NCBI GenBank assembly: GCA_035638695.1
Contig: DASQZM010000016.1
Coordinates: 24,035-88,034 of the forward strand
From: Gammaproteobacteria bacterium
GTDB taxonomy: Bacteria > Pseudomonadota > Gammaproteobacteria > UBA5335 > SLRW01
Reading direction: 5' to 3'
DNA: 64,000 bases
Part shown: piece after piece, positions 2,837 to 64,000 of the stretch
How positions within the stretch are numbered: the first letter of the stretch is position 1
Layout: the number at the start of each line of letters is the position of its first letter
Position numbers and translations under genes: made by a program
Notes under the pieces: model-generated
What the model was told of the DNA's origin: nothing
Database searches by the model: none
Seen by the model: only the letters and a program-made list of their open reading frames with translations

Positions 2837-4726
<1,890 letters not shown>

Positions 4727-4755
4727 CGGGGACCATTTCGGCGGAGGGCCGAGGC

Positions 4756-5622
4756 ATGCAGACAGGATTCATCGGGCTCGGTGCCATGGGCGTCTCCATG
4801 GCCCGCAATTTGCATCGTGCAGGGCTACTCGCGGCGGTCTGGAACCGTACGCCCGGCAAAGCGCAGGATCTCGCGCGCGAGACGGGCTGCACCGTCGCAC
4901 GCGACCCGGCGGACCTGGCATCCGGCTGCGAGGTGGTGATCCTGTGCGTGTCGGCCGACGCGGACGTACTGGAGGTGCTCGGGGTCATGGCGCCCGGGCT
5001 GAAGGCCGGCAGCATCGTGGTCGACTGCTCGACGGTCGCCGCCTCCACTGCCACGGAAGCCGCAGAAATCGCCGGGGCCCGGGGCGCTGCGTTCCTGGAC
5101 TGCCCGGTCTCCGGCGGCACCGAGGGTGCCGCCCAGGGCACGCTGGCAATCATGGCCGGTGGCGCCGCTGACGCCTTGGACCGCGCGATGCCGATGCTGG
5201 AAGCGATGGGGCGCAGCATCGTGCACATGGGCCCGGTCGGCGCCGGCCAGGCCACCAAGGCGGTCAACCAGATCATGGTCGCCGGGATCAACCAGGCGGT
5301 CACCGAGGCGCTGGCCTTCGGTGAAGCGCAGGGCCTGCCGATGGACCGGGCCATCGAGGTCGTGGGAAGCGGCGCGGCTGGCAACTGGTTCCTCAGCAAC
5401 CGCGGGGCGGGCATGGTGCGTGGCAGCTACCCGCCGGGGTTCAAGCTGGCGCTGCATGACAAGGACCTGGCTATCTGCCAGCAGATGGCCGCCGAGAAGG
5501 GCGTCCAGCTGCCGCTGATCGAGATGACGCGGCTGCACTATCGCCGGCTGCTCCAGGACGGCCACGGCGACGAAGACATCTCGGCTCTGTACCGGGCCAA
5601 GCGCGCGCTGTTCGACGGCTGA
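4756..5622 (+). CDS. NAD(P)-dependent beta-hydroxyacid dehydrogenase (3-hydroxyisobutyrate dehydrogenase / 2-hydroxy-3-oxopropionate reductase family)
   Basis: N-terminal Rossmann motif MQTGFIGLGAMGVSMARNL and family blocks DCPVSGG and GAGQATKAVNQ. The first 263 codons of track ORF 3967..5622 overlap speA in another frame and are not coding. Confidence 0.85.
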   Translation: MQTGFIGLGAMGVSMARNLHRAGLLAAVWNRTPGKAQDLARETGCTVARDPADLASGCEVVILCVSADADVLEVLGVMAPGLKAGSIVVDCSTVAASTATEAAEIAGARGAAFLDCPVSGGTEGAAQGTLAIMAGGAADALDRAMPMLEAMGRSIVHMGPVGAGQATKAVNQIMVAGINQAVTEALAFGEAQGLPMDRAIEVVGSGAAGNWFLSNRGAGMVRGSYPPGFKLALHDKDLAICQQMAAEKGVQLPLIEMTRLHYRRLLQDGHGDEDISALYRAKRALFDG

Positions 5623-16728: not shown

Positions 16729-16993
16729 CTAACCCGGTCCGAGGTAATGCCGCATCTCAGCGCTCCTGTCGGTCTCTCCGGCAAGGTGCGAGGGAGCGCA
16801 GTGTAGTGGCGCTACACGACCGACGGGCAACGCCGTCCCGACGGGGCCAGGCGAGCGCCCTGCGGGAGGGCGCGTGAGCGGCAATGACGGCGTTGCGCTC
16901 GCTCGTCGGGGCAAAGCAACTTGTTCGCTCCCGCGCCTTTTCCTTTCCAGCCACGCGCTCTCTGAGACGTGGCATTACCTCGGACCGGGTGAG
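16729..16993. mobile_element. MITE-like non-autonomous element, copy 1 (265 bp, terminal inverted repeats, whole-length hairpin symmetry)
   Basis: Left end CTAACCCGGTCCGAGGTAATGCC; right end GGCATTACCTCGGACCGGGTGAG. Central hairpin GCGCCCT-GCGGG-AGGGCGC at 16855..16873. Two further copies are at 57031 and 58777. Lies in the divergent pncA / OMP intergenic region. Confidence 0.8.
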
Positions 16994-35134: not shown

Positions 35135-37165
35135 ATGGCAACCGCGAAGAAGAACAAAACCGGTGCGGGGGGACGTTCCAACCGGCGGTTTATCGTGCTG
35201 CTGGTCCTTCTGGCGCTCTCGGTCGCCGGCAGCGCCGTGATCTTTGCCTACCTCGGGTCGGTCCAGGGCCATGATAAGAAATACCTCGAGATCACGCGCC
35301 AGCAGAGCCGCCTGAGCGACCGCATCAGCCGTTATGCGATGCTGGCAGTACGCGGTCGGGTCTCCGATCCGGATGCGGGCACCGGCCCGTTCCAGGCGCT
35401 GCTCAGCGCCAAGACCGCTTTCAGTCACGACATGGTGATTCTGCAGCACGGTGATCCCGCCCGGGGCCTGCCCGCCGCGCCGGCAGCGACACGCCCCGCC
35501 ATCGGGAAGGTGCGCGGGCTTTGGCGAAAACTCGACCGGCATCTGCAGGTCATCCTGAGTGGGCGCGGCTACCTGCCCAAGGCGCACGGTTACGCCGCGA
35601 CGCTGGACAAGCTGCTGCCCGGGATGGGGTCAAAGCTCCTGGGCTTGGCCGGCCAGGCCCACGGCAGTCGCGCCCGCGTGCTCGAGCGGCAGGTAGTGCG
35701 GGTGCAGCGGATCAACCAGCAGATCGACGCGCTGGTCCACGCCGGGGGTGGCCGCACACCGTCCGGCAAGCAGCTCAAGCAGTCCATCGGCACTCTCGGC
35801 ACCTCGCTCCAGGAGCTTAGCCACGGGAATCCCTCGAAGGAACTCACGGCGCCCGCCAGCGCCCGGGAGCGTCAGGCCCTGGATGCTCTGCTCGGGGACT
35901 ACCAGAAGCTGTCCGGGCAGGGAGGATACATCGCTGCTCACGCGGATGGCCTGGTCAAGGCGCAGCAGGCGCTCGCGGGGCTCGCGATCGAGCCCCTGCA
36001 GAACGCGCTGGCACAGCAGGAACAGGCGTTCCGCGAGGTGATGCGGGATCGTCCCGTGAAGGCGACCTACGGGCTGGCTTTGGCGGCGCTGGCCGCGGTG
36101 CTTCTGGTCATGGCCATCTATAGCATGACGTCGCAGATCCGCCGCTTGCTGCGCAACGCGCGGGAGCAGAACAGCCGTAACCAGGACGCCATCCTGCAGC
36201 TGCTGGACGAAATGGGCACCCTCGCGGAGGGCGACCTGACCGTGCAGGCGAGTGTGAGCGAGGACATCACGGGGGCCATCGCCGACTCCATCAACTACGC
36301 CATCGAAGCACTGCGCGACCTGGTGACGACCATCAACACGACGGCGGAACGGGTCGCGACCGCCGCCTCCGAGTCCCGGGACAACGCCAGCCGGCTGATT
36401 CGGGCCAGCGAGCAGCAGAGCGGGCAGATCAACGCCACCAGCGGCGCCATCGAAAACATGGCGCATTCCATTGGCCAGGTATCCGAGAACGCCCAGCGCT
36501 CGGCCAAGGTGGCGCAGCAGTCGGTGCAGACGGCGGCCAAGGGCGGCACCGCAGTACGCCGCACCATCGAGGGCATGGACAGCATTCGCGAGCAGATCCA
36601 GGAGACCTCCAAGCGCATCAAACGCCTCGGCGAGAGCTCCCAGGAGATCGGAAACATCGTCGAGCTGATCAACGACATCGCCGAGCAGACCAACATCCTG
36701 GCCCTGAACGCGGCCATCCAGGCGTCGGCTGCCGGGGAGCAGGGTCGCGGATTCGCGGTCGTGGCCGACGAAGTCCAGCGGCTGGCGGAGCGTTCGACCA
36801 ATGCGACCAAGCAGATCGAGGCACTGGTCCGGACGATCCAGGCGGATACCAACGAAGCAGTGACCTCGATGGAGAACAGCACTTCCGGCGTGGTGGCCGG
36901 CGCCAAGCTGGCCGAGGATGCGGGCAACGCGCTGGACGAGATCGAAAGGGTGTCGAACCAGATAGCGAGCCTGGTACAGAGTATCTCGGATGCGGCGCGC
37001 CAGCAGTCCCGGCAGGCCGCGGAAGTGACCAGCAACATGACCCAGATCCAGAAGGTTACGCAGGAGACGGCAGAGGGCACCCGCGAGACCGGGGACGCAA
37101 TCGGCCGGCTTGCGGAGCTGGCTACGGAGCTGCGCGAGTCCGTGGCAGGGTTCAAGCTGCCATGA
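35135..37165 (+). CDS. pilJ: methyl-accepting chemotaxis-type receptor PilJ
   Basis: 676 aa. N-terminal TM, periplasmic region, second TM and HAMP. Highly conserved MCP signalling tip EIGNIVELINDIAEQTNILALNAAIQASAAGEQGRGFAVVADEVQRLAERS. Confidence 0.9.
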   Translation: MATAKKNKTGAGGRSNRRFIVLLVLLALSVAGSAVIFAYLGSVQGHDKKYLEITRQQSRLSDRISRYAMLAVRGRVSDPDAGTGPFQALLSAKTAFSHDMVILQHGDPARGLPAAPAATRPAIGKVRGLWRKLDRHLQVILSGRGYLPKAHGYAATLDKLLPGMGSKLLGLAGQAHGSRARVLERQVVRVQRINQQIDALVHAGGGRTPSGKQLKQSIGTLGTSLQELSHGNPSKELTAPASARERQALDALLGDYQKLSGQGGYIAAHADGLVKAQQALAGLAIEPLQNALAQQEQAFREVMRDRPVKATYGLALAALAAVLLVMAIYSMTSQIRRLLRNAREQNSRNQDAILQLLDEMGTLAEGDLTVQASVSEDITGAIADSINYAIEALRDLVTTINTTAERVATAASESRDNASRLIRASEQQSGQINATSGAIENMAHSIGQVSENAQRSAKVAQQSVQTAAKGGTAVRRTIEGMDSIREQIQETSKRIKRLGESSQEIGNIVELINDIAEQTNILALNAAIQASAAGEQGRGFAVVADEVQRLAERSTNATKQIEALVRTIQADTNEAVTSMENSTSGVVAGAKLAEDAGNALDEIERVSNQIASLVQSISDAARQQSRQAAEVTSNMTQIQKVTQETAEGTRETGDAIGRLAELATELRESVAGFKLP

Positions 37166-37241
37166 GCGCCGGTGCGCGCCGGACAACGTAAGAGGCGATC
37201 GGGCCCGCTTCCCGCCGGGGGTGGACCGGAGTTTAGGGCCT

Positions 37242-40200
37242 ATGATGAAGCAGTCGGTTTCCGACTCCCTGCAATGGGTCAAAACGCAGCTCGATCAGTC
37301 GTTGCTGGCGGCCCGCAACGAGCTCGAGGCGTACGTGGACTCGCCCGAGGACGCATCGCCGCTGGAACGCTGCGCCGACGAGCTGCACCAGGTCGCCGGA
37401 ACGCTCGCGATGCTGGAGCTGACCGGTCCGCTCCTGATCACGCGGGAGCTGGAGTTTCTGCTGCAGCAGCTGCGTGGCGGCAACGCGCCAGAGACGGTCT
37501 ACGAGCCGATGCTCGCGGCGCTGATGGTGCTGCCGCACTACCTCGACCGGCTGCTGCACGGCCAGACCGATCTGCCGCTGCTGCTGCTGCCCCAGCTCAA
37601 CGGGCTGCGCACGGCTGCCGGCAAGCGCGCGCTTTCCGAGATCGACCTGTTCATCGAGACCCTGCCCGGCCTGCCGGACAATGACTACCTGCCACCCGAG
37701 GCCGTCAGCGGCGATCCCGCGGCAGAGGCCCGGCGACAGCGCGGGGTGTTCCAGTCCGCTCTCCTGCGGTGGATGAAGGACCCCACCGCAGAGCAGCACC
37801 TGCAGCGCATGCTGGACGCCATGGCGCGGATGCAGGGGGTGACCGCCGATCAGGACGCGTACCGGCTCTGGGGTGCCGCCGCGGCGGTGATCGAGGCGCT
37901 CAAGGACCGGGGGCTGGAAGCGGACAACACGCTCAAGCAGCTGCTCGGCCGGGTGGATCGGCAGCTCAAGCAGGTCGCCGATACGGGGCGGGCGCACGAG
38001 CCCGAGCGGCTGTTTTTGTCCCTGCTCTACTTTGCCGGCCGGGCCCGCTCGAGCGGTCAGCGCCTGCGGTATCTGTACGATGCCTTCGGGCTGGCCGAGC
38101 TGGTCCCGGATCCCGAGGAGCTCGAGCGGGCCCGCCAGGCCATGGCGGGGCCCGACGCGGAGCTGATCGGCAGCGTCTCGCGCGCGATCCGGGAAGACCT
38201 GGTAAGCGTCAAGGAGGCACTGGACGTGTTCCTGCGCGTCGAGGCCGCCCCCACGGACGAGCTGGCGCCGCTGGTGGAAACCCTCGCACGCGTCGCCAAC
38301 ACCCTCGGCATGATCAACATGCGGGGCATGGAGGAGCTGGTTGACGAGCAGGCCGCCGCGCTTAAGGCCATCACCGACGGGGAGGAAGAGGCGAGCGACG
38401 CCGGCCTGCTCGAGATTGCGCGCAATCTGCTCAACGTCGAGAGCCGCCTGGAAAGCGACGTGCTCCGTGACATCGAGCCCGGCGAGAGCGACTCGCAGGA
38501 GCCGCACGGCGTCGATCTCGAAATCGGCCGGGCCGTGTTCCGCGAATCGATCCGCAACCTGGCGCGCGTCAAGGAGAGCCTGACAGAGTTTCTCGAGCAG
38601 GAAGGAGACGTTTCCCTCGTGCGGGAAGCGATCCAGCTGCTGCACGAGATCGAGGCCAGCCTGGCGATGCTGGAGCTGGACCGTCCGGGAAAACTGCTCG
38701 GAGCCCTGCGCCAGTACTTGGCATACGAGATACTCGAGCGTGGGCACACGCCCGGCAGTGCCACCCTGGAGATCATCGCGGACGCCGTCATCAGCGTCGA
38801 GTATTACCTGGAGGCCCTGCGGGAGGGCCGCACCAGCCCCGAGAGCATTCTTGACACTACCGAGGGCTACGTCGACCTGCTGCAGGAGGAGCCCACGGGA
38901 GACTGGACCGCCACGGCGGTCGAAGCGGGCATCGGCGTACCGGCAGACGCGGCTCCGGAACAGGGCCACCAGGAGCCGCCGGAGCAGGCCGGCGGGGAGG
39001 AGCCGTCCTCCCGGGAAGAGCGCCCCGCCGTCGCCGAGGGGCAGGAGAATACGCACCGGGTACCGCCGGTGACGCCGCCCCAGGACGACGTCGACGAGGA
39101 GATCGTGGACATCTTCCTGGAAGAGGCGGAAGAGGTCCTGGAAACGTTCTCGGAGTTCGTGCCCCGCTGGCGCAACAACCCTGGTGACAACGAGGCCCTG
39201 GTCACCGTGCGGCGGGGTTTCCACACGCTCAAGGGCAGCGGCCGCATGGTTGGCGCCGAGTTCATGGGCGAGTTCGCATGGTCGATCGAGAACATGCTCA
39301 ACCGGGTGATCGATCAGACCGTGCAGCGCAGCGACGAGATCGTCGCGCTCATCGGCGAGGCTGTGGCCGCCCTACCCGAGCTGCTGCAGCAGCTGCGCGA
39401 CGGGACGCCGCCGCAGACGGACGTGCTGGGAATCATTGCGCGCGCTTACGAGATCGCCCAGCCGGGAAGCGCCGAGGCCGCGCGCGCTGCCGAGGCTGCG
39501 GGCAAGGCTCTGCACGGAACCGGGAGCACCGGGCCGGCAGAAGCCGGCGCGCCCGTGGACATTGGTGAGGAACCGCCGGAGCCCCCCGAGGGGCAGGAGC
39601 GGCCCGTAGAAGAAGCCGCCGGCGTCACAGACAAGGAAGCAGAGCCTGCCCGGGAACCCGGGGCCACGCAGATCGGCGCGGAGGCGGGCGAGGAAGCGCG
39701 AGAGCCGCCCCGGGAAGAGCCGGGAGTGGAGCAGACGGAAGGCACCGCAACGGAGCCGCGGGAGCCAGGAGCAGAAACCGGCGAGGAGGCCGCCGCGGCG
39801 CCGGAGACCGGCTCCGGCGGGCCCCGCATGGACTCCGTGCTGTACGAGATCTTCAGCAAGGAATGCGGTGGGCACCTCCAGACCGTCGACGCCTGCCTGC
39901 AGGCTGCCCGCGAGGGCGAGGAGGCGGATACGGTCGGCGACGACCTGATCCGCGCCCTGCACACGTTGCACGGCAGCGCCAACATGGCCGAGGCCACGGG
40001 GATCGCCGAGCTTGCCCGCCGGCTGGAGCATCTGGCCAAGGCGATGCACAACAAGCGCATGACGCTGGCCGGGGAGACGGAGTCCCTGTTTCGCACCAGC
40101 ACCGACGCGGTCCGCGACATCCTTGCGGCGCTGGGCGACAGCTCCGTGCCGATGCCGGATCACAGCGAGCTGTGGGCGCGGATCGAGGCCTACGAGCGCG

Positions 40201-42845
40201 AGTTGCTCGAGCGCGACGTCGGCCATCGCCAGGTCAGCCGCGACGAGCTCGACACGCCCGAGACGATGGATCCGGCGCTGACTGAGATCTTCCTCGACGA
40301 GGGCGTTGAAATTCTCGCCAAGGCCGACGAGATCCTGCACGACTGGAGCACCGAGCCGGCGAACCAGGAAGAGGTCGACGCCTTGCTCCGGGAGCTGCAT
40401 ACGCTCAAGGGCAGCGCCCGCATGGCGGGCGCCCGCAACATGAGCAACCTGACCCACGAGCTGGAGGCGGCGGTATCGCTGCTCGCGCGCGGTCGCATCA
40501 GCCGCAGCGACGACTACATTGACCTGCTGGTACGCACCGTGGATCAGCTGCATACCATGCTCGACCGCACCCGTTCCGGGCAGCCGGTAGAACCGGCGCA
40601 GGCGCTGCTCGATGAGCTGCAGCCGGCCCGCAGCGCGCCGGCTGGCCCGCCGGCCCCGGAGGAGACGGGCCCGGACGAGGCAGCGGCCAAACAGGCGGCC
40701 TCCGGAGAGCCGGAGGCGCCGGTGGAACCGCAGGACGAGCGGGAGAGTGGCGAGGCGGCATCCGGGGAGACGTCGGAAGCGGCCCGGGATGAAACCGGAG
40801 TCGCCGGGGAGGACGGTGCCTCCGCCGCGGCGCGCCAGGGGCCGGCCCGGTCGCGAGAGGAGCCCGCGGAAACCGCCGTGCAGGGCCGCGACGAGCCGCC
40901 GGCCGTCGAGAGCCAAGAGAATGAATCCGCGCCGGTGCGTGCTGCCGCGCCGGCGGAGGAGCATGGGGCTCCCGCTGCCCGGTCCGCCGGTTCGGACCTG
41001 ATCCGGGTGCCGGCCGAAATAATGGATACGTTGCTCAACAACGCCGGTGAGGTCAGCATCTACCGCGGCCGTCTGGAACAGCAGATCAGCTCGCTGGGCT
41101 TCAACCTCACCGAGCTGGATCAGACGGTGGAACGCCTGCGCAACCAGCTTCGGGAGCTCGAGATCGAGACCGAAGCGCAGATCCTGCACCACTACGGCCC
41201 TGAGGAAGAGGATCGGCTGCGGCAGGAGTTCGACCCGCTCGAGCTGGACCGCTACACGCGGGTGCAGCAGCTCTCCCGCGCGCTGGTCGAGAGCGTGTCG
41301 GACCTGACCAGCGTCGAGGAGCTGCTGGAAAACCTTCGCCGCGAGTCCGAGAGCCTGCTGCTACAGCAGTCGCGCGTGGCCACGGAGCTCCAGGACACCC
41401 TGATGCGCACCCGGATGGTGTCCTTCACCACCCAGGCGGCACGGCTGCGACGCATGGTCCGGCAGGTCTCGGCGGAGCTGGGAAAGCGCGCGCATCTTGA
41501 GGTCGTGGGCGAGGCAGAGCTGGACCGCACGGTGCTGGACCGGGTCATGCCGGCGCTGGAGCACATGCTGCGCAACGCGATCGCGCACGGGCTGGAAGTG
41601 CCCGAGGAACGGCGCCGGCGCGGCAAGCCTGAGGCGGGCACGCTGTCGGTGGCGTTGCACCGCGAGGGCGCCCAGGTGGTGATCGTCGTGCGTGATGACG
41701 GCGCCGGCCTGGACCTGGGGGCGATCCGACGCAAGGCAATCGAGAAAGGCCTGACGCGCGAGGGGGTCGAGCTCAGCGACCAGGACATCATCCAGTTCAT
41801 CCTGGAGCCCGGCTTCACCACCGCGGACAAGGTCACCCAGATTTCGGGCCGCGGTGTCGGCATGGACGTGGTCGACGCCGAGATCAAGCAGTTGTCCGGC
41901 TCCCTCGCCATCGACTCGGGCCCGGGCACCGGTACACGCTTCACCATCCGGCTCCCGTTCACGCTGGCCATCAGCCAGGGGTTGCTGGTGCGCCTCGGCG
42001 AGGAGACCTACGCGGTTCCGCTGAACGCCATCGAGGGCGTGGCGCGACTGGCGCCCCAGGAGGCGCATGAGTACCTCACCGGACACCAGACCCACTACCG
42101 CTACGGGGGCACAACATTCACCGTCCGCCCGCTGTCGGAGCTCATGGGCGCCGGCAGCCGGCTGCCGGCGGACGACGCCCAGACGGTGCCGATGATCCTG
42201 GTGCGGGCGGGCGAGGAGCGCGTCGCCCTGACCGTGGACAGCCTGATCGGTAGCCGTGAAATGGTGGTAAAGTCGGTCGGTCCCCAGCTCGGCGGTATCC
42301 GGGGCATCTCCGGCGCCACGATCCTGGGTGACGGCAGCGTTGTGCTCATCCTGGACCTGGTCGCGCTGGTGCGCTCCGGTGCCATCATGCAGCGCGCGCG
42401 AGAGACCGGCGCGGCCTACGAAAAGACGGACGCCGAGGCGGAACGCGGCGTGACCGTGATGGTCGTGGACGATTCCATCACCGTGCGGCGGGTCACCACG
42501 CGGCTGCTGGAAAGCCGCCAGATGAAGGTCTTGACCGCCAAGGACGGGGTCGACGCGGTGGCCCTGCTGCAGGAGAACCATCCTGACATCATGCTGCTGG
42601 ATATCGAGATGCCGCGCATGGACGGCTACGAACTGGCCAACCACATGCAGGGACACGAGGAATGGCGTGACATCCCGATCATCATGATTACCTCGCGCGT
42701 AGGCCAGAAGCACCGTAGCCGGGCCCTGGAGATCGGGGTGGACGAATACCTCGGCAAGCCCTATCAGGAGGCGGACCTGCTGGAGACCATCAATACGGTG
42801 CTGGAACGCCACCGCCGAAAAGATACGGCAGAGGCCGCCAAGTGA
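37242..42845 (+). CDS. chpA: ChpA/PilL-type hybrid CheA histidine kinase (multiple Hpt, kinase core, CheW-like, C-terminal receiver)
   Basis: 1,867 aa from ATG 37242 (MMKQSVSDSLQWVK). Three canonical Hpt sites: GFHTLKGSG (His codon 39222), ALHTLHGSA (39960) and ELHTLKGSA (40398), plus N-terminal degenerate Hpt-like helices. HATPase blocks HMLRNAIAHGLE, DDGAGLD and GRGVGMDVV. CheW-like domain. REC domain VMVVDDSITVRR...LLDIEMPRMDG. Confidence 0.9.
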   Translation: MMKQSVSDSLQWVKTQLDQSLLAARNELEAYVDSPEDASPLERCADELHQVAGTLAMLELTGPLLITRELEFLLQQLRGGNAPETVYEPMLAALMVLPHYLDRLLHGQTDLPLLLLPQLNGLRTAAGKRALSEIDLFIETLPGLPDNDYLPPEAVSGDPAAEARRQRGVFQSALLRWMKDPTAEQHLQRMLDAMARMQGVTADQDAYRLWGAAAAVIEALKDRGLEADNTLKQLLGRVDRQLKQVADTGRAHEPERLFLSLLYFAGRARSSGQRLRYLYDAFGLAELVPDPEELERARQAMAGPDAELIGSVSRAIREDLVSVKEALDVFLRVEAAPTDELAPLVETLARVANTLGMINMRGMEELVDEQAAALKAITDGEEEASDAGLLEIARNLLNVESRLESDVLRDIEPGESDSQEPHGVDLEIGRAVFRESIRNLARVKESLTEFLEQEGDVSLVREAIQLLHEIEASLAMLELDRPGKLLGALRQYLAYEILERGHTPGSATLEIIADAVISVEYYLEALREGRTSPESILDTTEGYVDLLQEEPTGDWTATAVEAGIGVPADAAPEQGHQEPPEQAGGEEPSSREERPAVAEGQENTHRVPPVTPPQDDVDEEIVDIFLEEAEEVLETFSEFVPRWRNNPGDNEALVTVRRGFHTLKGSGRMVGAEFMGEFAWSIENMLNRVIDQTVQRSDEIVALIGEAVAALPELLQQLRDGTPPQTDVLGIIARAYEIAQPGSAEAARAAEAAGKALHGTGSTGPAEAGAPVDIGEEPPEPPEGQERPVEEAAGVTDKEAEPAREPGATQIGAEAGEEAREPPREEPGVEQTEGTATEPREPGAETGEEAAAAPETGSGGPRMDSVLYEIFSKECGGHLQTVDACLQAAREGEEADTVGDDLIRALHTLHGSANMAEATGIAELARRLEHLAKAMHNKRMTLAGETESLFRTSTDAVRDILAALGDSSVPMPDHSELWARIEAYERELLERDVGHRQVSRDELDTPETMDPALTEIFLDEGVEILAKADEILHDWSTEPANQEEVDALLRELHTLKGSARMAGARNMSNLTHELEAAVSLLARGRISRSDDYIDLLVRTVDQLHTMLDRTRSGQPVEPAQALLDELQPARSAPAGPPAPEETGPDEAAAKQAASGEPEAPVEPQDERESGEAASGETSEAARDETGVAGEDGASAAARQGPARSREEPAETAVQGRDEPPAVESQENESAPVRAAAPAEEHGAPAARSAGSDLIRVPAEIMDTLLNNAGEVSIYRGRLEQQISSLGFNLTELDQTVERLRNQLRELEIETEAQILHHYGPEEEDRLRQEFDPLELDRYTRVQQLSRALVESVSDLTSVEELLENLRRESESLLLQQSRVATELQDTLMRTRMVSFTTQAARLRRMVRQVSAELGKRAHLEVVGEAELDRTVLDRVMPALEHMLRNAIAHGLEVPEERRRRGKPEAGTLSVALHREGAQVVIVVRDDGAGLDLGAIRRKAIEKGLTREGVELSDQDIIQFILEPGFTTADKVTQISGRGVGMDVVDAEIKQLSGSLAIDSGPGTGTRFTIRLPFTLAISQGLLVRLGEETYAVPLNAIEGVARLAPQEAHEYLTGHQTHYRYGGTTFTVRPLSELMGAGSRLPADDAQTVPMILVRAGEERVALTVDSLIGSREMVVKSVGPQLGGIRGISGATILGDGSVVLILDLVALVRSGAIMQRARETGAAYEKTDAEAERGVTVMVVDDSITVRRVTTRLLESRQMKVLTAKDGVDAVALLQENHPDIMLLDIEMPRMDGYELANHMQGHEEWRDIPIIMITSRVGQKHRSRALEIGVDEYLGKPYQEADLLETINTVLERHRRKDTAEAAK

Positions 42846-42860
42846 CGGAGAGCGCCCGGG

Positions 42861-43343
42861 ATGGCTGAGCGCAACGGCGGCGCGGCCAACGACGTCTACA
42901 GCCTGCTGTTGCCCCTGAACGGCAACCGCCGGCTGCTGCTGCCCAATGCGGCGATCGTGGAGGTGATCGGTCACACGGCGATCGATCCGGTCAAGGACGG
43001 CCCCGCCTGGCAGGCGGGCATGGTGGCATGGGGGGATCGGCGGTTGCCCGTGATCAGCTTCGAAGCGGCCGACGGTGACGCGCTGCCGCCGCCGAACCCG
43101 CGGGCCCGCGTCGCGATCCTCTACAATATCGACGAGTCACTGGACGAGGACTACCTGGCCCTGGTCGTCCAGGGCCATCCTCACCTGGTCAAGGTGGAGC
43201 GCGGCCTGCTGCAACAGGGCCGCGAAGAGCCGGGCGTCGACTCCCCGGTGCTGTGCCGGGTACGGATCGGCACGACCGAGGCGATCATCCCGGACCTCGA
43301 TTTCCTGGCACGGCTGGTGGCGGAAGAGCAAGAACAAGAATAG
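42861..43343 (+). CDS. chpC: CheW-like protein ChpC
   Basis: 160-aa CheW-domain-like protein (LLLPNAAIVEVIG...WGDRRLPVISFE) immediately after chpA. Confidence 0.7.
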   Translation: MAERNGGAANDVYSLLLPLNGNRRLLLPNAAIVEVIGHTAIDPVKDGPAWQAGMVAWGDRRLPVISFEAADGDALPPPNPRARVAILYNIDESLDEDYLALVVQGHPHLVKVERGLLQQGREEPGVDSPVLCRVRIGTTEAIIPDLDFLARLVAEEQEQE

Positions 43344-56805: not shown

Positions 56806-57030
56806 GCCTAGCCTCTTGGGTCGGTATGAAGGGGGCCGCTGCGCGGACACCTTGCATGCCGGCAGCTCCCGGCAATCCGTTGCTTGCGCAAAATGACCGG
56901 CCTGCGGGCGGGGTGTGCCCCCCGGTCGCGATTTCTCCCCGCTGACGCTGGCCTCATGCAACGAGTCCGGACCGGGGGAACGGCGGATGACGGCCCCCCC
57001 GGTGACCCTGACACGGTCAGGGCGCTATTA

Positions 57031-57296
57031 CTAACCCGGTCAGAGGTAATGCCGCATCTCAGCGCTCCGGTCGGTCTGTCTGGCAGGGCGCGAGGAGCGG
57101 AGTGTGGTCGGGTGCTACGCAACCGACGCGCAACGCCGTCCAGACGGGGCGAGGCGAGCGCCCTGCGGGAGAGCGCGTGTGCGGCGATGACCGCGTTGCG
57201 CTCGCTCGTCGTAGTGTGGCTACGCCTTCGCTCCCGCGCCTTGTTCTCCCCACACACGCGCTCTTTGAGACGTGGCATTCCCCCTGACCGGGTTAG
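57031..57296. mobile_element. MITE-like element, copy 2 (266 bp, most diverged)
   Basis: CTAACCCGGTCAGAGGTAATGCC ... GGCATTCCCCCTGACCGGGTTAG, flanked by TA on both sides. Colinear with copies at 16729 and 58777. Confidence 0.8.
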
Positions 57297-57383
57297 TATA
57301 TGCGAGCACGCAGGCCGTGGCATAGCAATGCTCCGGGCCTCCTCCGGCTCCCCCACCCGCAGCGGCCGTCTCCTCGCGGCGCT

Positions 57384-57851
57384 TCAGGCGGTCGGCCGGT
57401 ACGCCTCCACGAACTCCGGCGGCATCCGCGCCGGCTTCCCGCGCTTGAGGTCCATGCACACCCACTGGGTCTTCGCCCGCAGCACGGTGCGCCGGTCCTG
57501 CTCACGAATGAGCTGGTAATAGCGCTTGAGTCCGATGCGCGAGGGCTCGGCGATCCAGGTGCTGGCCAGGATGCGGTCGCCCTCGAAGCAAGCCGCAAGA
57601 TAATCGATCTCGTGCCGTCGTGCCACCATGGCCCGGTTGAGGCGGTGATAGACGTTCCAGTCGATGCCACAGGACTGCGAGTGCGCCCACGCCACTTGCT
57701 CCATCCAGCGCAGGTAGACGCCGTTGTTGACGTGATCCAGCACGTCGATGTCGTCGGTGCTCGCCCGCACCCGGATCACGAACGGGTTCGGGTAGTCCCA
57801 CTCGAGCCCGGCGAATTCCTCCTCCGGGACGACCTGTGGCTCGCTGCTCAT
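57384..57851 (-). CDS. 4HBT/YbgC-type acyl-CoA thioesterase
   Basis: Hotdog-fold pattern DDIDVLDHVNNGVYLRWMEQ. ATG at 57851 is preceded by GGAGG; the track TTG at 57860 is the alternative. Confidence 0.8.
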   Translation of the reverse strand: MSSEPQVVPEEEFAGLEWDYPNPFVIRVRASTDDIDVLDHVNNGVYLRWMEQVAWAHSQSCGIDWNVYHRLNRAMVARRHEIDYLAACFEGDRILASTWIAEPSRIGLKRYYQLIREQDRRTVLRAKTQWVCMDLKRGKPARMPPEFVEAYRPTA

Positions 57852-57870: not shown

Positions 57871-58731
57871 TCAGGAGAACTTGCGCTCCTCCCACCAGGG
57901 ATAGAAGTCCGGCAGGTCCCGGCTCGGCTTCATGGTGAACCTCGCCGGGCGCTTTTCCAGGAAGGACTCCACGCCCTCGCGGGCGTCGGCCGACTGGCCC
58001 ATGAAACCGATCGCGCGCGAGTCGATCTTGTGCGCCTCCATGGGATGGTCCGCGCCCAGCATGCGCCACATCATCTGGCGGTTCAGCGCCACCGAGATCG
58101 CGGAGGTCTTCCCGGCGATCTCGCCCGCCAGCCTGCGCGCCGCCGGCATCAGCTCGTCGGGCTCGTGCAGGCTGCGCACCAGGCCGCCGCGCAGCGCCTC
58201 CTCGGCATCGAACACGCGCCCGGTATAGACCCACTCGGCCGCCTGCTGCATGCCCACCAGACGCGGGAGGAACCAGCTCGAGCAGGCCTCCATGGTGATC
58301 CCGCGCTGGGCGAAGACGAAGCCGAAGCGGGCTTTCTTCGAGGCCAGGCGGATGTCCATGGGAAGCTGCATGGTGATGCCCACGCCCACGGCGGCGCCGT
58401 TGACCGCGGCGATCACCGGCTTTTTCGACTCGTAGATCCGCAGCGAGACCATGCCGCCGCCGTCGCGATCCCTGTTGCCCAGCGCCTCCTCGGCCCGCTT
58501 GCTGCGGTCGAAGGTATCGCCGCCCTTCTCCAGGTCGGCGCCGGCGCAGAAGGCCTTGCCCTCGCCGGTGACGATCACCGCGCGCACGTCGTCGTCGGCG
58601 TCGGCATGGTCGAAGGCGTCGATCAGCTCCCGCATCATGGCCGCGGTGAAGGCGTTCATGCGCTCGGGGCGGTGCAGGGTCAGGGTGAGGATGTTGTCTT
58701 CGACCTCGTACTTCAGCGTCTCGTAGCTCAC
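57871..58731 (-). CDS. enoyl-CoA hydratase/isomerase (crotonase) family protein
   Basis: VIVTGEGKAFCAGADL oxyanion-hole motif and PVIAAVNGAAVGVG. GTG start. Confidence 0.88.
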   Translation of the reverse strand: MSYETLKYEVEDNILTLTLHRPERMNAFTAAMMRELIDAFDHADADDDVRAVIVTGEGKAFCAGADLEKGGDTFDRSKRAEEALGNRDRDGGGMVSLRIYESKKPVIAAVNGAAVGVGITMQLPMDIRLASKKARFGFVFAQRGITMEACSSWFLPRLVGMQQAAEWVYTGRVFDAEEALRGGLVRSLHEPDELMPAARRLAGEIAGKTSAISVALNRQMMWRMLGADHPMEAHKIDSRAIGFMGQSADAREGVESFLEKRPARFTMKPSRDLPDFYPWWEERKFS

Positions 58732-58776
58732 AGGTCTGCTCCGGATGCAGGCTGGGTCGCCCGGCAGGGCGGTGTA

Positions 58777-59040
58777 CTGACCCGGTCAGAGGTAATACCG
58801 CATCTCAGCGCTCCTGCCGGTCTGTCTGGCAAGGCGCGAGGAGCGCAGTGCAGTGGCGCTACACGACCGACGGGCAACGCCGTCCCGACGGGGCGAGGCG
58901 AGCGCTCTGCGGGAGGGCGCGTGAGCGGCGATGACGGCGTTGCGCTCGCTCGTCGGGGCAAAGCTACGCCTTCGCTCCCGCGCCTTGTCCTCCCCAGCCA
59001 CGCGCTCTCCGAGACGTGGCATTACCTCGGACCGGGTTAG
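58777..59040. mobile_element. MITE-like element, copy 3 (264 bp)
   Basis: CTGACCCGGTCAGAGGTAATACC ... GGCATTACCTCGGACCGGGTTAG. A 112-nt central stretch differs from copy 1 at only 3 positions in my alignment. Lies between the crotonase start and the RHS gene. Confidence 0.8.
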
Positions 59041-59249
59041 TGAATGCGCGCCAGTATAGCAGCGGCGGGGTCGGGAGCCGAAACGGGACGCATCGCGTTG
59101 TCCCAGCACCCAGCATGGGTACTTTGACGAATCCTCGGGCTTTGTCTACGCTTTTTCCATAAAAGCAAATCATGACTAGCGCAAAGGAAATGCGCTCGCG
59201 TGATAAGGCCCCGCTTGGGGAAGGCAGACAGGGACGTTCGGGGGCCGGC

Positions 59250-62200
59250 ATGGATGCTTGGCGCTGCGCACGACGGGTGGTCTGCGCGTTGACCGCCCTG
59301 ATTATTCCGGCGACGTCGATCGCCGTTTCGGCGGATGACGGTCCGGACCGGAACTACGCTCATGCACTCTGGCTTGCGCGCGGCAGACGGGTGCTTCGGC
59401 TGCCCGTAAACGCGGGCGATAGCGACCTGGAGATCGACAACGCGGCGCCTGTCTCGCGGCTGGCGCTGGACCGGGAGCGCGGCCGTCTTTGGATCTATAC
59501 CGGCGGGAACCTTGCCGCCTTCGACTTCGACGGCAGGCGACTGCACCAGACGAGAGTGGTCTCCGCCGCCCAGGCCGCGTGGGATCGCCTGCCATTGCCG
59601 CATCCGTTTCTCCACTTGGCGCTACGGCCGGATCACGGTCTGTGGCTCGTGCGGGGCCGGTCGCTGGTGCTCGTCGCTCCGGACGATACCATCGAGGCAC
59701 GCAAGCAGCTGGACGAAGGGGTGCTCGACGCCGCTGCCGATCCGGAGACGCGTCGCCTGTGGCTCGCGGGTCCGTTCTCCGTGACGGCCTACGATCAGGC
59801 CGGCAACAGGGCCGCGCATCTGTCCACGTTCCCGCACCCGGTGCGCGCCGTCGCGCCCGGACCCGGAGGAGCGACGCTCTGGCTGGCGGGCCCCCCCGGC
59901 TTGCGCCTGGTCGACATGACTGGTGCTGTCCGGCAGCGGTATCCGTCCGTTCACGCGGATGACCTCGCGCGAGACGGACAAGGCGGTTTGTGGGCGCTCT
60001 CGCGGCGGACCCTCTGGCGCATCGATCCGGCCGGGCAGGTCGTGGTGGTACGTCGGATGCGCCCGGTCCGCGGCCGAGGCTGGCGGCGCGGCTGGGCCGT
60101 CGACCCCGCCGACGGCACGTTATGGATGGCCACCGGGCCGATCGTGCGCCACATCGGAGGCGAAGGCTCGGTGCTCGGCCAAAAGACCCTCTCCAGCATG
60201 CCGCCGCGGCTGCTCGACCGCCTAAGCGGCATTGCAGTGTATGCGGACACGTTTCCGCCGACGCTGGAAGTGGCCTCGCCCGCGAACGGGGCTTTCCTGG
60301 CGACGCACCGACCGATGATCCGGCTTGGCTACGACGACAATGGTGTCGGGGCAGATCCGTCGTCCATCCGGGCGCAGAGCGCGGGCAACGCGCTTCCCGT
60401 GGACTGCAGCGGGGACCGGACCAGCGCGCAGTGCATGCCGGCACGAGAGATTCCCGACGGGGCGCTGGATCTCGCCGTGACCGTGGCGGACTTTGCCGGC
60501 AACCGGTCCCAGCCGGCCCACGTGTCCTTCACAGTGGACACGATCCCGCCGAAGATCACGGTGAGCTCGCCCGAGGACGGCGCCTGGACCAACGACCCGC
60601 AGCCGACGCTCGCCGGCAGCGTGTCCGAGCCGGCCACGCTCACGCTTGACGGCAGCCCACTAAACCTGGACGTGCGCCACGCCTTCCGTCAGCCACTGGA
60701 CCTGACCGAGGGCAGCAACGCCCTGCACCTGGTCGCGGCCGACCGCGCCGGCAATCGTGGAACGGCTGAGCTTACGGTCCACCTGGATACCGTTCCGCCC
60801 GATCCCGTGCCTGGGTCAGCACTCACCGTTGGCACGCCGAGCAACGGCCAAGTGACCCTCTCGGGCGAAAAGGGCAGTGTGCCCGCGGGGATCGAGGTTG
60901 TTGTCAGCAACCTGGATACGGGCGATCACGTAACCACCGACGCCAACGCCGGCGGGAGCTTCTCGGCCAGCATCGCCGCCAAGGCCGGCCAGAGTCTGGA
61001 GATCCAGGCGGTCGACCGCGCCGGCAACCTCAGCGAAGCTCTCGCCGAGCACGTCGGCCCGCCGGATCCGGCGAAGGTCGCCCCGAAGATCGATCCAACG
61101 GTCAGCGCGAGCATGGCGGAGACCACTGCCTTCCTCTACCAGGGGAGTGAGCCGGTGCAGACCGGTGTCGCCTCGGGCGCGATCGAAGCGCGCCGCGCGG
61201 CCGTCATCCGCGGCAAGGTCATTTCGCGGGACGGCACGCCCCTCCCCGGCGTTCTGGTCACGGTCCAGGGGCATCCGGAGCTGGGTCAGACCCTGACGCG
61301 CAAGGACGGGCGCTACGACCTCGCCGTCAACGGCGGCGGGGCGCTGGTTCTGCGCTACTCGCACCAGGGCTACCTGACTGCAAGGCGCCAGCTCCATGCG
61401 AAATGGCAGAGCTACCTGGAGTCCCCGACCGTGGCGCTTGTGAAGCCAGACGCGCATGTGACCCCGGTGTCGTTTGGTGATACCAGCGTCACCCAGTTGG
61501 TCGGGGGGAGTCTCGAGACCGACGCCGCCGGCAGGCGCCGCGCGATTGCCGTATTCGCGCCGGGCACGCAGGCGACCATGGAAATGCCGGATGGGAGCAC
61601 GCGCAGCCTGGGTGGAGGAGACGTCCGGATCACGGAATACACGGTTGGCGACAACGGTCGCAAGGCGATGCCGGCCCGTCTGCCCGACATGAGCGGCTAC
61701 ACTTACGCCGTAGACCTGAGCATTGACCAGGCGCAGACGGCGGGTGCCACCCGCATCGACTTCGACAAACCAGTGCGCCTTTATGTGCGTAACTTTCTCG
61801 GCTTCCCGGTCGGTGGCGCCGTCCCGCTGGGCTGGTACGACCCGACGCAAGCCCACTGGGTGCCCGCGGACAACGGCCGCATCGTCGGTGTGCTCTCCCT
61901 CGACACCGACGGCTGTGCGCTGCTGGATGTGGATGGCAGCGGTCAGCCTGCGAGCGGCGACGCGCTGGGGTCGCTCGGCATCGATCACGCCGAGAAGTGT
62001 CGTATCGGGCACCTGTACTCGGCCGGCCAGAGCTTCTGGCGCATGTCGGTTAGCCACTTCACCGTCTATGACAGCAACTGGCCCATAACCCTCCCGCCAG
62101 GATCCGCGCCACCCGAGGAAGCTCCGCACGCCGCCGGTCGCGGTAAGCTGGACAGCAACCGGGATAACCAGTGCCCGGGCTGCCGCATCAACGCACAGCC

Positions 62201-64000
62201 GCAAGTCCTGACCCAGAGCATTCCAATCGCTGGCACGGATTTGCAGCTCGTCTACAGCGGCGACCGAGCCAACGGGTATACGGTCGGTCGCTCGATCGAT
62301 ATTCCCGTTACGGGAGACACGGTCCCGGACTATCTGCTCAGCGCCGATGTAACGGTGAGGGTTGCCGGGCAGGCCGTGCATCGCCATTTTTCGCCGGATC
62401 CGGACCAGCACTTCGGATTCGTCTGGAACGGCCGGGACGCCTATCGCCGTAAGGTGTACGGCGCCTACAGGGCAACCGTGACGGTTTCCTATACTTATCC
62501 GTTGGTCTATCTGAGCGCCTTCACGGGTGGCGTGTCGTTTGATATGGCCCCACGCAAGCGACAGGAGATAGGTCCAACGTTTCTAACGACGGGTCGCACC
62601 TACTCCCTGAGTCGGACCTGGACCATCAAGCTGCAGCCGGATATCCCGGACAGCAACGCGCTCGGCGGCTGGATGTTGGACGTACATCATGCATACGACC
62701 CAGTGGGGCACGTGCTGGTCAAGGGGGACGGATCTCATCGCGGCGCCGGGTCGGTGGGGCTGGTGGTGAGTACCATTGCGGGTGGTGGCACCAGGTCCCC
62801 GGACAACGTGCCCGCCAAAGAGGCCAAGCTGAGCCAACCCACGGATCTCGCGGTCGACAGCGCCGGCAACTTGTTTATCGCAACATTCGAGGGGCTGATG
62901 GAAGTCACTTCCGACGGCCGAATCCACGAGCTCTCCCCCAACGTCCGGGGACCGAGCACAGTGGCGGTCGGGCCGGACGGAAATCTGTACGTCGGGTCCT
63001 ACGATGGCAATACGATGTACAGGCTACAACCGGATGTCGCGATCACCGCAATCGCAGGCAACGGCGACCATTGTCCCGACTCGTCCAGTGATTGCGGTAA
63101 CGGCGGACCCGCGATTGACGCCAGTCTCGACATCGAGGATATCGCCGTGGGCCATGACGATACGATCTACCTCATGCACGAGGACCACTTCTCGAGGCAG
63201 CAGCACCTCAAGGAGATCACCCCCGACGGGACATTGCACGATCTCCTCGCGTGGAGTGGCTCGCTCGCCTGCTGCCAGGCGAACAGGGTAGCGGCAGATC
63301 GCAACGGCGGGGTCTACTACGGTGGCTGGGAGGGTCCGGTCCTACGGAAGGGCCCGCACGATAAGACCAGCAATATTCGCCCGGCATCGCCGAATCTCAT
63401 CGCGGATTTTGCGCAGGGCCCGGACGGCTGGGTCTACGTGCTGGACGGATCGCGTATATGGAAGGTCGGCCCGGATGGGGCCGACGCGGTGATCGCGGGA
63501 TCCGGAGCAGCGTGTTTCAATGATCAGGACGGGTGCGGGGACGGGGGGCTGGCGCTGGATGCCGCCTTCGACGGTGACGGTGCGGGACGCCTGGCGGTTG
63601 CGCCGGATGGCGCCATCTACGTCACGGATCTCTATACCAATCGGGTTCGCAAGATCAGCCCGTCACTCCCCGGCCGAAGTAATGGCAAAATTCTCGTGCC
63701 CTCGCGGGATGGCAGCAAGCTGTTCTACTTTTCTCCCGATGGCCGTCACTTGCGCACTACCAGCGCGACCACGGGCGCGCTCGTCTACCGTTTCGGTTAC
63801 GACGACACCGGACGGCTGATCAGCATCACCGACGGCAGTGACAATGTAACCACGATCGGGCGCGACAGCGCTGGCCGAGCCACGGCAATCGTCGCGCCGG
63901 ACGGCGAGAAGACCACGCTGCAGATCAATGCGTCGGACCAGCTCGTACAAGTGACCGACCCGGCTGGAGCAAGCTGGAAGGCCGGTTACGAGGACAACGG
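59250..64000 (+). CDS. secreted RHS/YD-repeat, teneurin-like polymorphic-toxin scaffold protein, 3' end beyond window (>1,583 aa)
   Basis: I translated it by hand and found no stop from 59163 to 64000. Sec-type signal MDAWRCARRVVCALTALIIPATSIAVSA. Seven ~40-aa LW blades. Ig-like modules ending D-x-AGN. CarboxypepD_reg/TTR-like RGKVISRDGTPLPGVLVTVQGHPELGQTLTRKDGRYDL. NHL-type repeats (LSQPTDLAVDSAGNLFIA, VAVGPDGNLYVGS, LAVAPDGAIYVTD). YD repeats at the end (YRFGYDDTGRLISITDGSDNVTTIGRDSAGRATAIVAPDGEKTTLQ). In-frame ATGs at 59172 and 59190 are alternative starts. Confidence 0.85.
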   Translation, partial: MDAWRCARRVVCALTALIIPATSIAVSADDGPDRNYAHALWLARGRRVLRLPVNAGDSDLEIDNAAPVSRLALDRERGRLWIYTGGNLAAFDFDGRRLHQTRVVSAAQAAWDRLPLPHPFLHLALRPDHGLWLVRGRSLVLVAPDDTIEARKQLDEGVLDAAADPETRRLWLAGPFSVTAYDQAGNRAAHLSTFPHPVRAVAPGPGGATLWLAGPPGLRLVDMTGAVRQRYPSVHADDLARDGQGGLWALSRRTLWRIDPAGQVVVVRRMRPVRGRGWRRGWAVDPADGTLWMATGPIVRHIGGEGSVLGQKTLSSMPPRLLDRLSGIAVYADTFPPTLEVASPANGAFLATHRPMIRLGYDDNGVGADPSSIRAQSAGNALPVDCSGDRTSAQCMPAREIPDGALDLAVTVADFAGNRSQPAHVSFTVDTIPPKITVSSPEDGAWTNDPQPTLAGSVSEPATLTLDGSPLNLDVRHAFRQPLDLTEGSNALHLVAADRAGNRGTAELTVHLDTVPPDPVPGSALTVGTPSNGQVTLSGEKGSVPAGIEVVVSNLDTGDHVTTDANAGGSFSASIAAKAGQSLEIQAVDRAGNLSEALAEHVGPPDPAKVAPKIDPTVSASMAETTAFLYQGSEPVQTGVASGAIEARRAAVIRGKVISRDGTPLPGVLVTVQGHPELGQTLTRKDGRYDLAVNGGGALVLRYSHQGYLTARRQLHAKWQSYLESPTVALVKPDAHVTPVSFGDTSVTQLVGGSLETDAAGRRRAIAVFAPGTQATMEMPDGSTRSLGGGDVRITEYTVGDNGRKAMPARLPDMSGYTYAVDLSIDQAQTAGATRIDFDKPVRLYVRNFLGFPVGGAVPLGWYDPTQAHWVPADNGRIVGVLSLDTDGCALLDVDGSGQPASGDALGSLGIDHAEKCRIGHLYSAGQSFWRMSVSHFTVYDSNWPITLPPGSAPPEEAPHAAGRGKLDSNRDNQCPGCRINAQPQVLTQSIPIAGTDLQLVYSGDRANGYTVGRSIDIPVTGDTVPDYLLSADVTVRVAGQAVHRHFSPDPDQHFGFVWNGRDAYRRKVYGAYRATVTVSYTYPLVYLSAFTGGVSFDMAPRKRQEIGPTFLTTGRTYSLSRTWTIKLQPDIPDSNALGGWMLDVHHAYDPVGHVLVKGDGSHRGAGSVGLVVSTIAGGGTRSPDNVPAKEAKLSQPTDLAVDSAGNLFIATFEGLMEVTSDGRIHELSPNVRGPSTVAVGPDGNLYVGSYDGNTMYRLQPDVAITAIAGNGDHCPDSSSDCGNGGPAIDASLDIEDIAVGHDDTIYLMHEDHFSRQQHLKEITPDGTLHDLLAWSGSLACCQANRVAADRNGGVYYGGWEGPVLRKGPHDKTSNIRPASPNLIADFAQGPDGWVYVLDGSRIWKVGPDGADAVIAGSGAACFNDQDGCGDGGLALDAAFDGDGAGRLAVAPDGAIYVTDLYTNRVRKISPSLPGRSNGKILVPSRDGSKLFYFSPDGRHLRTTSATTGALVYRFGYDDTGRLISITDGSDNVTTIGRDSAGRATAIVAPDGEKTTLQINASDQLVQVTDPAGASWKAGYEDN

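Follow-up and report, generated by a model that had tools for sequence, protein, structure and literature searches.

The end of the window, by which we mean the whole stretch of 64,000 nucleotides from contig DASQZM010000016.1 of a gammaproteobacterium, carries the first part of a long plus-strand gene. As far as sequence comparison can tell, its product is almost certainly a bacterial teneurin-like protein (TLP), not a generic Rhs protein or one of the type associated with type VI secretion systems (T6SS). An earlier reading of the letters alone (hereafter the sequence-only reading) had noticed a frame that opens after the stop codon TAA at 59160-59162 and runs to 64000 without a stop. Machine translation bears this out: between 59160 and 64000 the only stop is the first codon, and it is followed by 1,612 sense codons, with Met codons at 59172, 59190, and 59250. 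We recovered the rest of the gene by an exact-sequence look-up of the upstream ECH gene, which led to a 90.9-kb ENA contig (L006) that carries the whole open reading frame (ORF) and is identical to the end of the window at 601 of 601 bases. Positions on this contig are converted to window positions by subtracting them from 67314. The gene thus ends at window-equivalent position 66689, and the full protein has 2,479 amino acids if it starts at the ATG at 59250 or 2,505 if it starts at the one at 59172. The former is the likely start codon, since the aligned position is where the ortholog on contig L001 (MDARRC...) begins, and there is no similarity upstream of it; we number residues from this codon. 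The part of the protein encoded in the window is the same as in P0001, a 2,322-residue protein deposited at NCBI from a metagenome-assembled genome (MAG) of a Gammaproteobacterium. The annotated start of P0001 is a GTG at 59721 (residue V158), which leaves out 157 N-terminal residues. Hence, the annotated protein has no signal peptide and only half of the N-terminal propeller described below.

The frame has the signature of a coding region, with a GC content at third codon positions (GC3) of 0.79 and strong profile matches, and given its 2,479 intact codons and this GC3 we reject a pseudogene. We also reject a chance ORF. It had been called the largest gene in the window. This holds for the full 2,479 residues and not for the 1,583 codons inside the window, which are fewer than those of a 1,911-residue ChpA-type gene upstream. 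Two long minus-strand ORFs lie opposite to it, and the sequence-only reading had taken them for shadows. Both exist, and both fail a filter on coding composition (GC3 of at least 0.78 and GC2 of at most 0.62) that is passed by every neighboring gene; they are therefore antisense shadows and not genes. In the other two plus-strand frames, only short ORFs are listed. The features of the region are given in Table 1.

Table 1. Features at the 3' end of the window (window coordinates; a slash marks a predicted cut)
Feature	Position	Strand	Basis
MITE-like element, 258 bp, 22-nt terminal inverted repeats, directly upstream	58780..59037	.	Mismatch-tolerant pattern search
Reduced-GC 5' intergenic region, MITE to start codon	59038..59249	+	GC 0.595 (59040-59249)
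TLP gene, part in the window, codons 1-1583	59250..64000	+	Stop-free frame; 100% identical to P0001
Predicted Sec (SPI-type) signal peptide, residues 1-28, cleavage AVSA/DD	59250..59333	+	Manual/hydropathy heuristic
Antisense ORF, 380 aa, opposite TLP frame	59302..60444	-	Fails GC3/GC2 coding filter
7-bladed beta-propeller, residues ~29-330	59334..60239	+	Trp spacing, AF2 model, Foldseek
Three tandem bacterial Ig-like domains, residues ~338-598	60261..61043	+	Pfam, NCBIfam
Antisense ORF, 531 aa, opposite TLP frame	60816..62411	-	Fails GC3/GC2 coding filter
Teneurin TTR (transthyretin/carboxypeptidase-regulatory-like), residues 646-728	61185..61433	+	PF25020 TTR_TEN1-4
TIP (teneurin insertion protein) region, residues ~729-960	61434..62126	+	BiTLP alignment; boundaries approximate
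FN-plug region, residues ~960-1171	62127..62762	+	PF24329, BiTLP alignment
Predicted N-terminal self-cleavage site G977/C978 in QCPG/CRINAQ	62178..62183	+	Aligns with BiTLP G723/S724
NHL beta-propeller, residues ~1172-1470	62763..63659	+	PF25021, PF01436
YD-shell start (RHS repeats)	63708..64000	+	RHS_repeat 3.2e-10 in window

Domain architecture and family assignment

Bacterial TLPs are defined by an FN-plug, an NHL propeller, and a YD-shell, and in 96% of them a TIP region is placed between the TTR and the FN-plug (Raoelijaona et al., Nat Commun 2026, PMC13018210). The same survey, which lists 139 TLP-positive genomes, describes variable N-terminal adhesion modules, signals of the SPI or SPII type, polymorphic C-terminal domains (CTDs) of ~15 kDa whose types include ART, nuclease, protease, and HINT, and a downstream immunity gene. 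It also provides the family with cryo-EM structures, toxicity assays, and immunity pairing, and reports two self-cleavages in BiTLP, the protein of Bacillus inaquosorum (PMC13018210).

The same core modules follow one another in our protein. The TTR matches its teneurin profile at 9.3e-24 (83.6 bits, cut-off 27), the core of the FN-plug lies at 62301-62498 (residues 1018-1083; PF24329 FN-plug_TEN1-4, 30.0 bits against a cut-off of 27.8), and the NHL propeller is found both by PF25021 TEN_NHL (1.3e-17, 64.2 bits, cut-off 27.1) and by PF01436 NHL (2e-08). The YD-shell spans residues 1487 to ~2354 and reaches window-equivalent position ~66311, with its first ~100 residues in the window; full-length P0001 matches PF25023 TEN_YD-shell (6.5e-46, 157 bits, cut-off 50) and has 11 RHS_repeat stretches. 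The bounds of the TIP are approximate, being placed by the alignment to BiTLP and the published order. One continuous phmmer alignment (P0001 453-1137 to BiTLP 9pt5_A 360-1062) covers the TTR, the TIP, the FN-plug, and the start of the NHL propeller. All the profiles that the sequence-only reading had named (RHS_repeat, NHL, CarboxypepD_reg, Big/Ig-like, and Reg_prop) gave matches, CarboxypepD_reg at 6.2e-12 and Reg_prop at 25.2 bits (cut-off 20.4).

Among PDB sequences, the best by far is the bacterial TLP (9pt5_A/9ifo_A), with an E value of 8.6e-286 and 955 bits over an alignment that extends from the TTR to where the RHS core ends; below it come the animal teneurins (~330 bits) and the T6SS Rhs proteins (<100 bits). 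BiTLP (PDB 9pt5, 9ifo) has the same TTR-TIP-FN-plug-NHL-YD-shell order, aligns almost from end to end, and has in common with our protein the R, D, and D residues of the autoprotease, the PxxxxDPxG motif, a small CTD of ~12-15 kDa that is predicted to be encapsulated, upstream Ig-like domains, a signal peptide of the SPI type, and a small neighboring gene downstream. The differences concern the host, which is a diderm Gammaproteobacterium here and Gram-positive in BiTLP; the N terminus, where a 7-bladed propeller takes the place of wall or S-layer anchors; the residue at the FN-plug cleavage position, which is Cys instead of Ser; the CTD, which has no significant similarity to that of BiTLP, is unrelated to it, and gives no PDB match with its profile (A6); and the candidate immunity protein, which unlike that of BiTLP has four transmembrane (TM) segments. 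Metazoan teneurins (Ten2 6FB3, Ten3 6FAY, and Ten4 7BAM) are homologous in the TTR, FN-plug, NHL, and YD-shell, with vertebrate entries at ~313-334 bits and the weakest ones at 267-281. They differ from our protein in their type II TM anchor, EGF repeats, ABD, and Tox-GHH, none of which appeared in domain searches of it, whereas it has a TIP and an intact autoprotease motif; the loss of the autoprotease residues and of the TIP in animal teneurins has been described (PMC13018210). Every feature by which a TLP can be recognized from sequence appears to be present, except that the G/S site is G/C here. The gene is thus an additional member of a recently described family, not a new kind.

Upstream of this core, the protein opens with the Sec-type signal peptide that the sequence-only reading had proposed, and our heuristic agrees with it. 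The n-region is basic (R5, R8, and R9), the hydrophobic core has 15-17 residues (about 10-24, Kyte-Doolittle peak 2.6), and the predicted signal peptidase site, V-S-A/DD, has small residues at -3 and -1 and no lipobox. Comparable signal peptides open all ten full-length members of the clade. Then comes a propeller with seven invariant Trp residues spaced ~40 residues apart, for which no Pfam family was above threshold over residues ~29-330. Its AlphaFold2 model (AF2) has ~29 strands and is confident (pLDDT 83.9, pTM 0.85). The top natural match in Foldseek is the YVTN propeller of the archaeal S-layer protein 1L0Q (TM-score 0.72, rmsd 2.9), and subsequent ones are YncE of E. coli and WD40 propellers. 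This propeller is specific to the gammaproteobacterial clade to which the protein belongs. The Ig-like region is matched by Big_13 (2.2e-12), Glucodextran_B (3.4e-10), and Big_6 (8.6e-06) of Pfam and by Ca_tandemer of NCBIfam (6.8e-09). Together, the propeller and the three Ig-like domains likely form a stalk for display or adhesion.

Two other classes of proteins also have a YD/RHS cage and a C-terminal autoprotease. The protein could be an Rhs effector of a T6SS, which would carry it on a VgrG/PAAR spike into neighboring cells: T6SS Rhs structures (7q97, 8h8a, 8qjb, and Tse5) are weakly detectable homologs with the same C-terminal autoprotease, and the family of its C-terminal tip occurs also on classical Rhs proteins with DUF6531 and an RHS core. 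We consider this very improbable, since the predicted Sec signal peptide is incompatible with cytoplasmic loading on a spike, no PAAR, prePAAR, VgrG, or DUF6531 of Pfam matches the protein at E <= 0.1, and T6SS Rhs proteins have no TTR, TIP, FN-plug, or NHL and score <100 bits against 955 for BiTLP. The neighborhood agrees with this. Our Pfam scan of the context covered the ten largest ORFs of 1-47 kb and the annotated genes of 47.9-58.7 kb, with about thirty smaller ORFs of 1-47 kb left out, and found in these ORFs no component of type I, type II, or type VI secretion systems or of Tc toxins; nor is there a T6SS domain beside five homologous loci. The protein could alternatively be the B/C-type cocoon of a Tc (ABC) toxin aimed at eukaryotic hosts, which would account for the RHS cocoon, the autoprotease, and weak matches to TccC2 and TcdB2-TccC3 (E ~1e-4). 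This is less credible still: neither the scanned ORFs of the window nor the homologous loci encode a TcA- or TcB-type partner, the domain order is that of TLPs, and the scores are far below those obtained with TLPs.

The assignment as a TLP suggests where the chain may be cut. At its C-terminal side, R2103, D2116, and D2140 of BiTLP align with R, D, and D of our protein, and the motif PLDFGDPFGH fits PxxxxDPxG; by homology, cleavage after DPFGH would free a tip of 125 residues beginning with WSFSF. At the N-terminal side, a cut at G723/S724 of BiTLP was seen by cryo-EM and N-terminal sequencing (PMC13018210), and the aligned G977/C978 in the FN-plug may be cleaved as well. The residue following the predicted cut is Cys in 6 of 11 proteins of the clade (this one and five of its ten relatives, P0002-P0011) and Ser in the other five. 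Such an exchange is one that a nucleophile would tolerate. A second Cys is found three residues upstream of this site (QCPGCRINAQ, 62169-62198), and another is conserved in the tip family, where 8 of the 11 aligned members have it. It is tempting to speculate that these cysteines recall the C719-C2216 disulfide of BiTLP.

The C-terminal tip and its four-TM partner

The sequence-only reading had predicted an RHS/YD polymorphic toxin with a variable tip and an immunity gene just 3' of the window. The contig L006 shows the elements of such an arrangement: the RHS core ends at PLDFGDPFGH and is followed by the 125-residue tip and then by a small ORF. The GC content falls from ~0.67 to ~0.52 at the boundary between core and tip and remains low through this ORF. 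The ORF encodes 144 residues (MGKNFLAMP...), with four hydrophobic segments, and begins 24 nt past the stop of the TLP gene, or 18 nt if a GTG start is used. Its homologs have 33-59% identity and an invariant WWSSGA motif; matches to DUF2919 (18 bits), DUF2569 (16 bits), and an antiporter subunit (13 bits) of Pfam/NCBIfam are below threshold.

The tip has no Pfam or NCBIfam match, and its profile, built from 11 tips, has no match among PDB sequences at E <= 10. When this profile was searched against 1.84 billion proteins, it matched 197 cluster representatives; among the 150 matches listed, nearly all end within a few residues of the C terminus. Five long matches were examined, of which one is another TLP and four are classical Rhs proteins (P0052, P0073, P0079, and P0080). 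The latter carry the same tip family, after a DPxGL cleavage site, and differ from our protein in their cages, which have 1,225-1,630 residues, are of the RHS-core/DUF6531 type, and have none of the teneurin modules; RHS_repeat is found in these proteins, with an RHS core and DUF6531 in some. The tip and the four-TM ORF occur together in four contexts: in our locus (L006), in the TLP locus of L001, after a C-terminal RHS fragment (L013), and with an orphan tip (L009). In the last of these (4001-4855), a phage-type integrase gene is found 1.6 kb upstream of a stand-alone tip of 129 residues (P0046) and its partner. Because tip and partner have been inherited together across different scaffolds, they are likely a toxin and its immunity protein. 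Their motifs were not found in the supplementary sequences of the 2026 paper, one file of which was covered in part, so that their absence there is not proven.

What could such a tip do? It is rich in Gly (26%), has ten GxxxG motifs, and shows a hydrophobic periodicity of two residues above that of shuffled sequences (p 0.0015-0.019), the helical periodicity not being above them. At its invariant positions stand G, W, F, Y, D, and P, which do not make up a catalytic set. These traits and the membrane nature of its partner suggest a membrane-permeabilizing tip, which we rate as only a little better than an even guess. Immunity to toxins that act on membranes is typically conferred by a polytopic membrane protein, as with the pore-forming colicins. 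The tip may instead be an enzyme, or a toxin that targets the periplasm or the cell wall, with the four-TM protein protecting in another way or not being an immunity factor at all. TLP tips are indeed very diverse in function, with ART, nuclease, protease, and HINT types, the model of this one has no assignable fold, and the near-invariant positions include one Cys, one Glu, and two Asp/Arg. Still, most invariant positions are Gly and aromatics, no enzyme family of Pfam, NCBIfam, or PDB is matched, and the partner has the polytopic nature just described. We therefore see an enzymatic or wall-targeting tip as a possibility to keep in mind, though a rather unlikely one.

Relatives, locus, and mobile elements

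The ten members of the clade have a body of ~2,350 residues in common with our protein and have unrelated tips. Among them, P0003 alone carries the same tip, those of P0004-P0011 being different. In two related MAGs the TLP gene is found at the same place, beside ECH, a 4HBT thioesterase, two cytochromes c, and an acyl-CoA ligase. The syntenic ECH genes (57871-58731 on the minus strand here and 8885-9745 on L001) are 90% identical, and the adjacent TLP is 59% identical to P0003, which implies a stable locus with a fast-evolving TLP gene. Between the same two genomes, the tips are 75% identical and the immunity proteins 60% identical. A more distant member of the clade is the TLP of Solimonas sp. 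K1W22B-7 (GCA_003428335.1; P0009 on L003), which was listed and assayed in the published survey and has a predicted protease as its tip (PMC13018210). It has an N-terminal propeller, 2,489 residues, and 35% identity over 74% of our query, and it differs in its tip, in its downstream gene, which encodes ankyrin repeats, and in its neighborhood. Small ORFs, such as the ankyrin gene of Solimonas, follow the distant homologs, as do orphan YD-shell fragments accompanied by small ORFs; in Natronospira there is an insertion sequence (IS) as well. At two of these distant loci (L004 15608-19149 and L005 15566-21389), such fragments and their small ORFs form arrays, with an IS (rve) in the latter. No partner gene conserved across the homologous loci was found.

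These comparisons bear on the possibility that the protein is primarily a molecule of adhesion or recognition at the cell surface, like animal teneurins, toxin delivery not being its main role. The propeller and the Ig-like stalk resemble an adhesin, the propeller of an S-layer protein is its closest natural match in fold, three related MAGs keep the gene at a conserved locus, and a role in cell-cell communication has been left open for TLPs (PMC13018210). However, the autoprotease residues that animal teneurins have lost are kept here, and the swapping of tips among relatives, the compositionally foreign tip cassette, and the co-inherited partner are the signature of toxin-immunity conflict. 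Adhesion as the main role thus seems unlikely to us, and the two roles are not mutually exclusive.

Directly upstream of the gene lie two features that the sequence-only reading had pointed out, and both were recovered. The patch at 59100-59250 has a GC content of 0.563 against 0.692 for the window. The miniature inverted-repeat transposable element (MITE) before the gene is one of three copies of ~260 bp (16732-16990, 57034-~57295, and 58780-59037), with a mean column identity of 92%; the 2.2 kb before the TLP gene hold two of them. Their terminal inverted repeat, ACCCGGTC[A/C]GAGGTAAT[G/A]CCGC (22 nt), occurs five times where none is expected. The termini are imperfect, so they were missed by an inverted-repeat finder and recovered by a pattern search tolerating mismatches. 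A scan of 58700-59300 found no sigma-70 consensus promoter and no terminator. On the other side, the immunity ORF is followed by the start of an IS3-type transposase (L006 90..1 on the minus strand, window-equivalent 67224-67313; weak HTH_Tnp_1 match); the contig L006 ends inside this element, which is probably the reason for the assembly break. Composition also changes along the gene: GC content is 0.60-0.66 at 62300-64000, against 0.68-0.73 in the 5' part of the gene and 0.692 in the window, and the gene-wide GC3 of 0.79 compares with 0.83-0.97 in most neighbors. These oddities are consistent with past horizontal acquisition. The accessory-region context proposed by the sequence-only reading is hence right only in part: the MITE, the low-GC 5' region, the IS3-type start, and the low-GC tip cassette support it, whereas the syntenic position in two related MAGs speaks against it.

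Farther upstream, the MITE copy at 57.0 kb is spanned by an ORF of 208-211 residues at 56884-57519 on the plus strand (L006 9795..10421), which the public contig lists as a gene; it gave no match in Pfam and is probably a spurious call. The scanned neighbors are housekeeping genes and a type IV pilus chemosensory cluster of the Pil-Chp type (35135-43343), with a PilJ-type methyl-accepting chemotaxis protein (676 residues), a CheW, and a ChpA-type hybrid kinase that combines Hpt, HATPase, CheW, and REC domains (37110-42845, 1,911 residues), which is the largest closed gene in the window.

Proposed mechanism and implications

Taken as a whole, the locus is best explained as a Sec-exported, self-encapsulating polymorphic toxin TLP of a Gammaproteobacterium, a reading that we regard as probable. 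Two characterized proteins suggest how it might work. BiTLP has a CTD that is toxic only when directed to the periplasm and permeabilizes E. coli cells (PMC13018210). In Tse5 of Pseudomonas aeruginosa, an Rhs cage encloses a self-cleaved fragment of ~16 kDa that forms pores, depolarizes membranes, and acts preferentially from the periplasmic side (PMC10684867). We take Tse5, with its RHS cage around a self-cleaved membrane-depolarizing fragment, as the working model for the tip; it differs from our protein in being delivered by the T6SS, in lacking a signal peptide, TTR, TIP, FN-plug, and NHL, and in having no detectable sequence relation to the tip. If the protein behaves like its homologs BiTLP and Tse5, its YD-shell would close around the tip, and the chain of ~260 kDa would cleave itself after DPFGH and probably also at G977/C978. 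The cage could then be displayed or released outside the cell and its tip delivered to a neighboring bacterium. There, as composition and the partner gene suggest, the tip may hit the cytoplasmic membrane of the target from the periplasmic side, forming pores or otherwise permeabilizing it, and the four-TM protein, polytopic in the inner membrane, may protect the producer and its kin.

Several observations weigh against this account. We found no outer-membrane system for export or delivery in the scanned ORFs of the window or near the homologs. At the predicted cleavage sites, the first DPxG motif has the degenerate form DQVL, and the nucleophile position of the FN-plug has a Cys where Ser is reported as highly conserved. 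As for the tip, it is predicted to consist entirely of beta hairpins in a model of moderate confidence (pLDDT 62), and a Foldseek search of this model against PDB gave nothing significant (best E 0.12, TM-score <= 0.31), the noise including VapG/VapD, OEP21, and Pla. Its maximum hydropathy over 19 residues is 1.29, so that it has no classical TM helix, and amphipathic beta-strands are also found in soluble beta proteins. Because the model is moderate and has no structural neighbor, the case for a pore former is built on its composition and on its partner being a membrane protein. More generally, the cleavage, export, toxicity, and immunity of this TLP are all things that we infer.

The locus had been singled out as the best candidate in the window for a poorly described system. 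For the family this is overstated, since the 2026 paper covers it, including the TLP of Solimonas sp. K1W22B-7; it holds for the mechanism of delivery, which the same paper states to be unknown (PMC13018210). One bold idea, to which we give little credence as a whole, is that the clade-specific propeller and the Ig-like stalk are the missing module for surface display or receptor binding, which would make the Sec-exported TLP a means by which diderm bacteria kill on contact and independently of the T6SS, and that the tip and its four-TM partner belong to an unannotated family of RHS-encapsulated beta-hairpin pores.

Our analysis does not overturn current understanding; it places the protein, with good support, in a family described only recently. 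It also leads to a database correction, since the start of the NCBI protein at GTG 59721 is too far downstream. TLPs are rare prokaryotic proteins from which the teneurin neuronal receptors descend, and their export and delivery are the main question of the family. To this the locus adds a complete gammaproteobacterial TLP with a confidently modeled N-terminal propeller, a candidate module for display or for binding a receptor. The natural swap of Ser for Cys at the FN-plug site fits a self-cleavage driven by a nucleophile. Finally, the tip and its putative immunity protein form a pair without a match in Pfam, NCBIfam, or PDB that is common to TLP and classical Rhs cages. If the tip is truly a beta-hairpin pore, its architecture would be different from those of both Tse5-CT and the BiTLP CTD.

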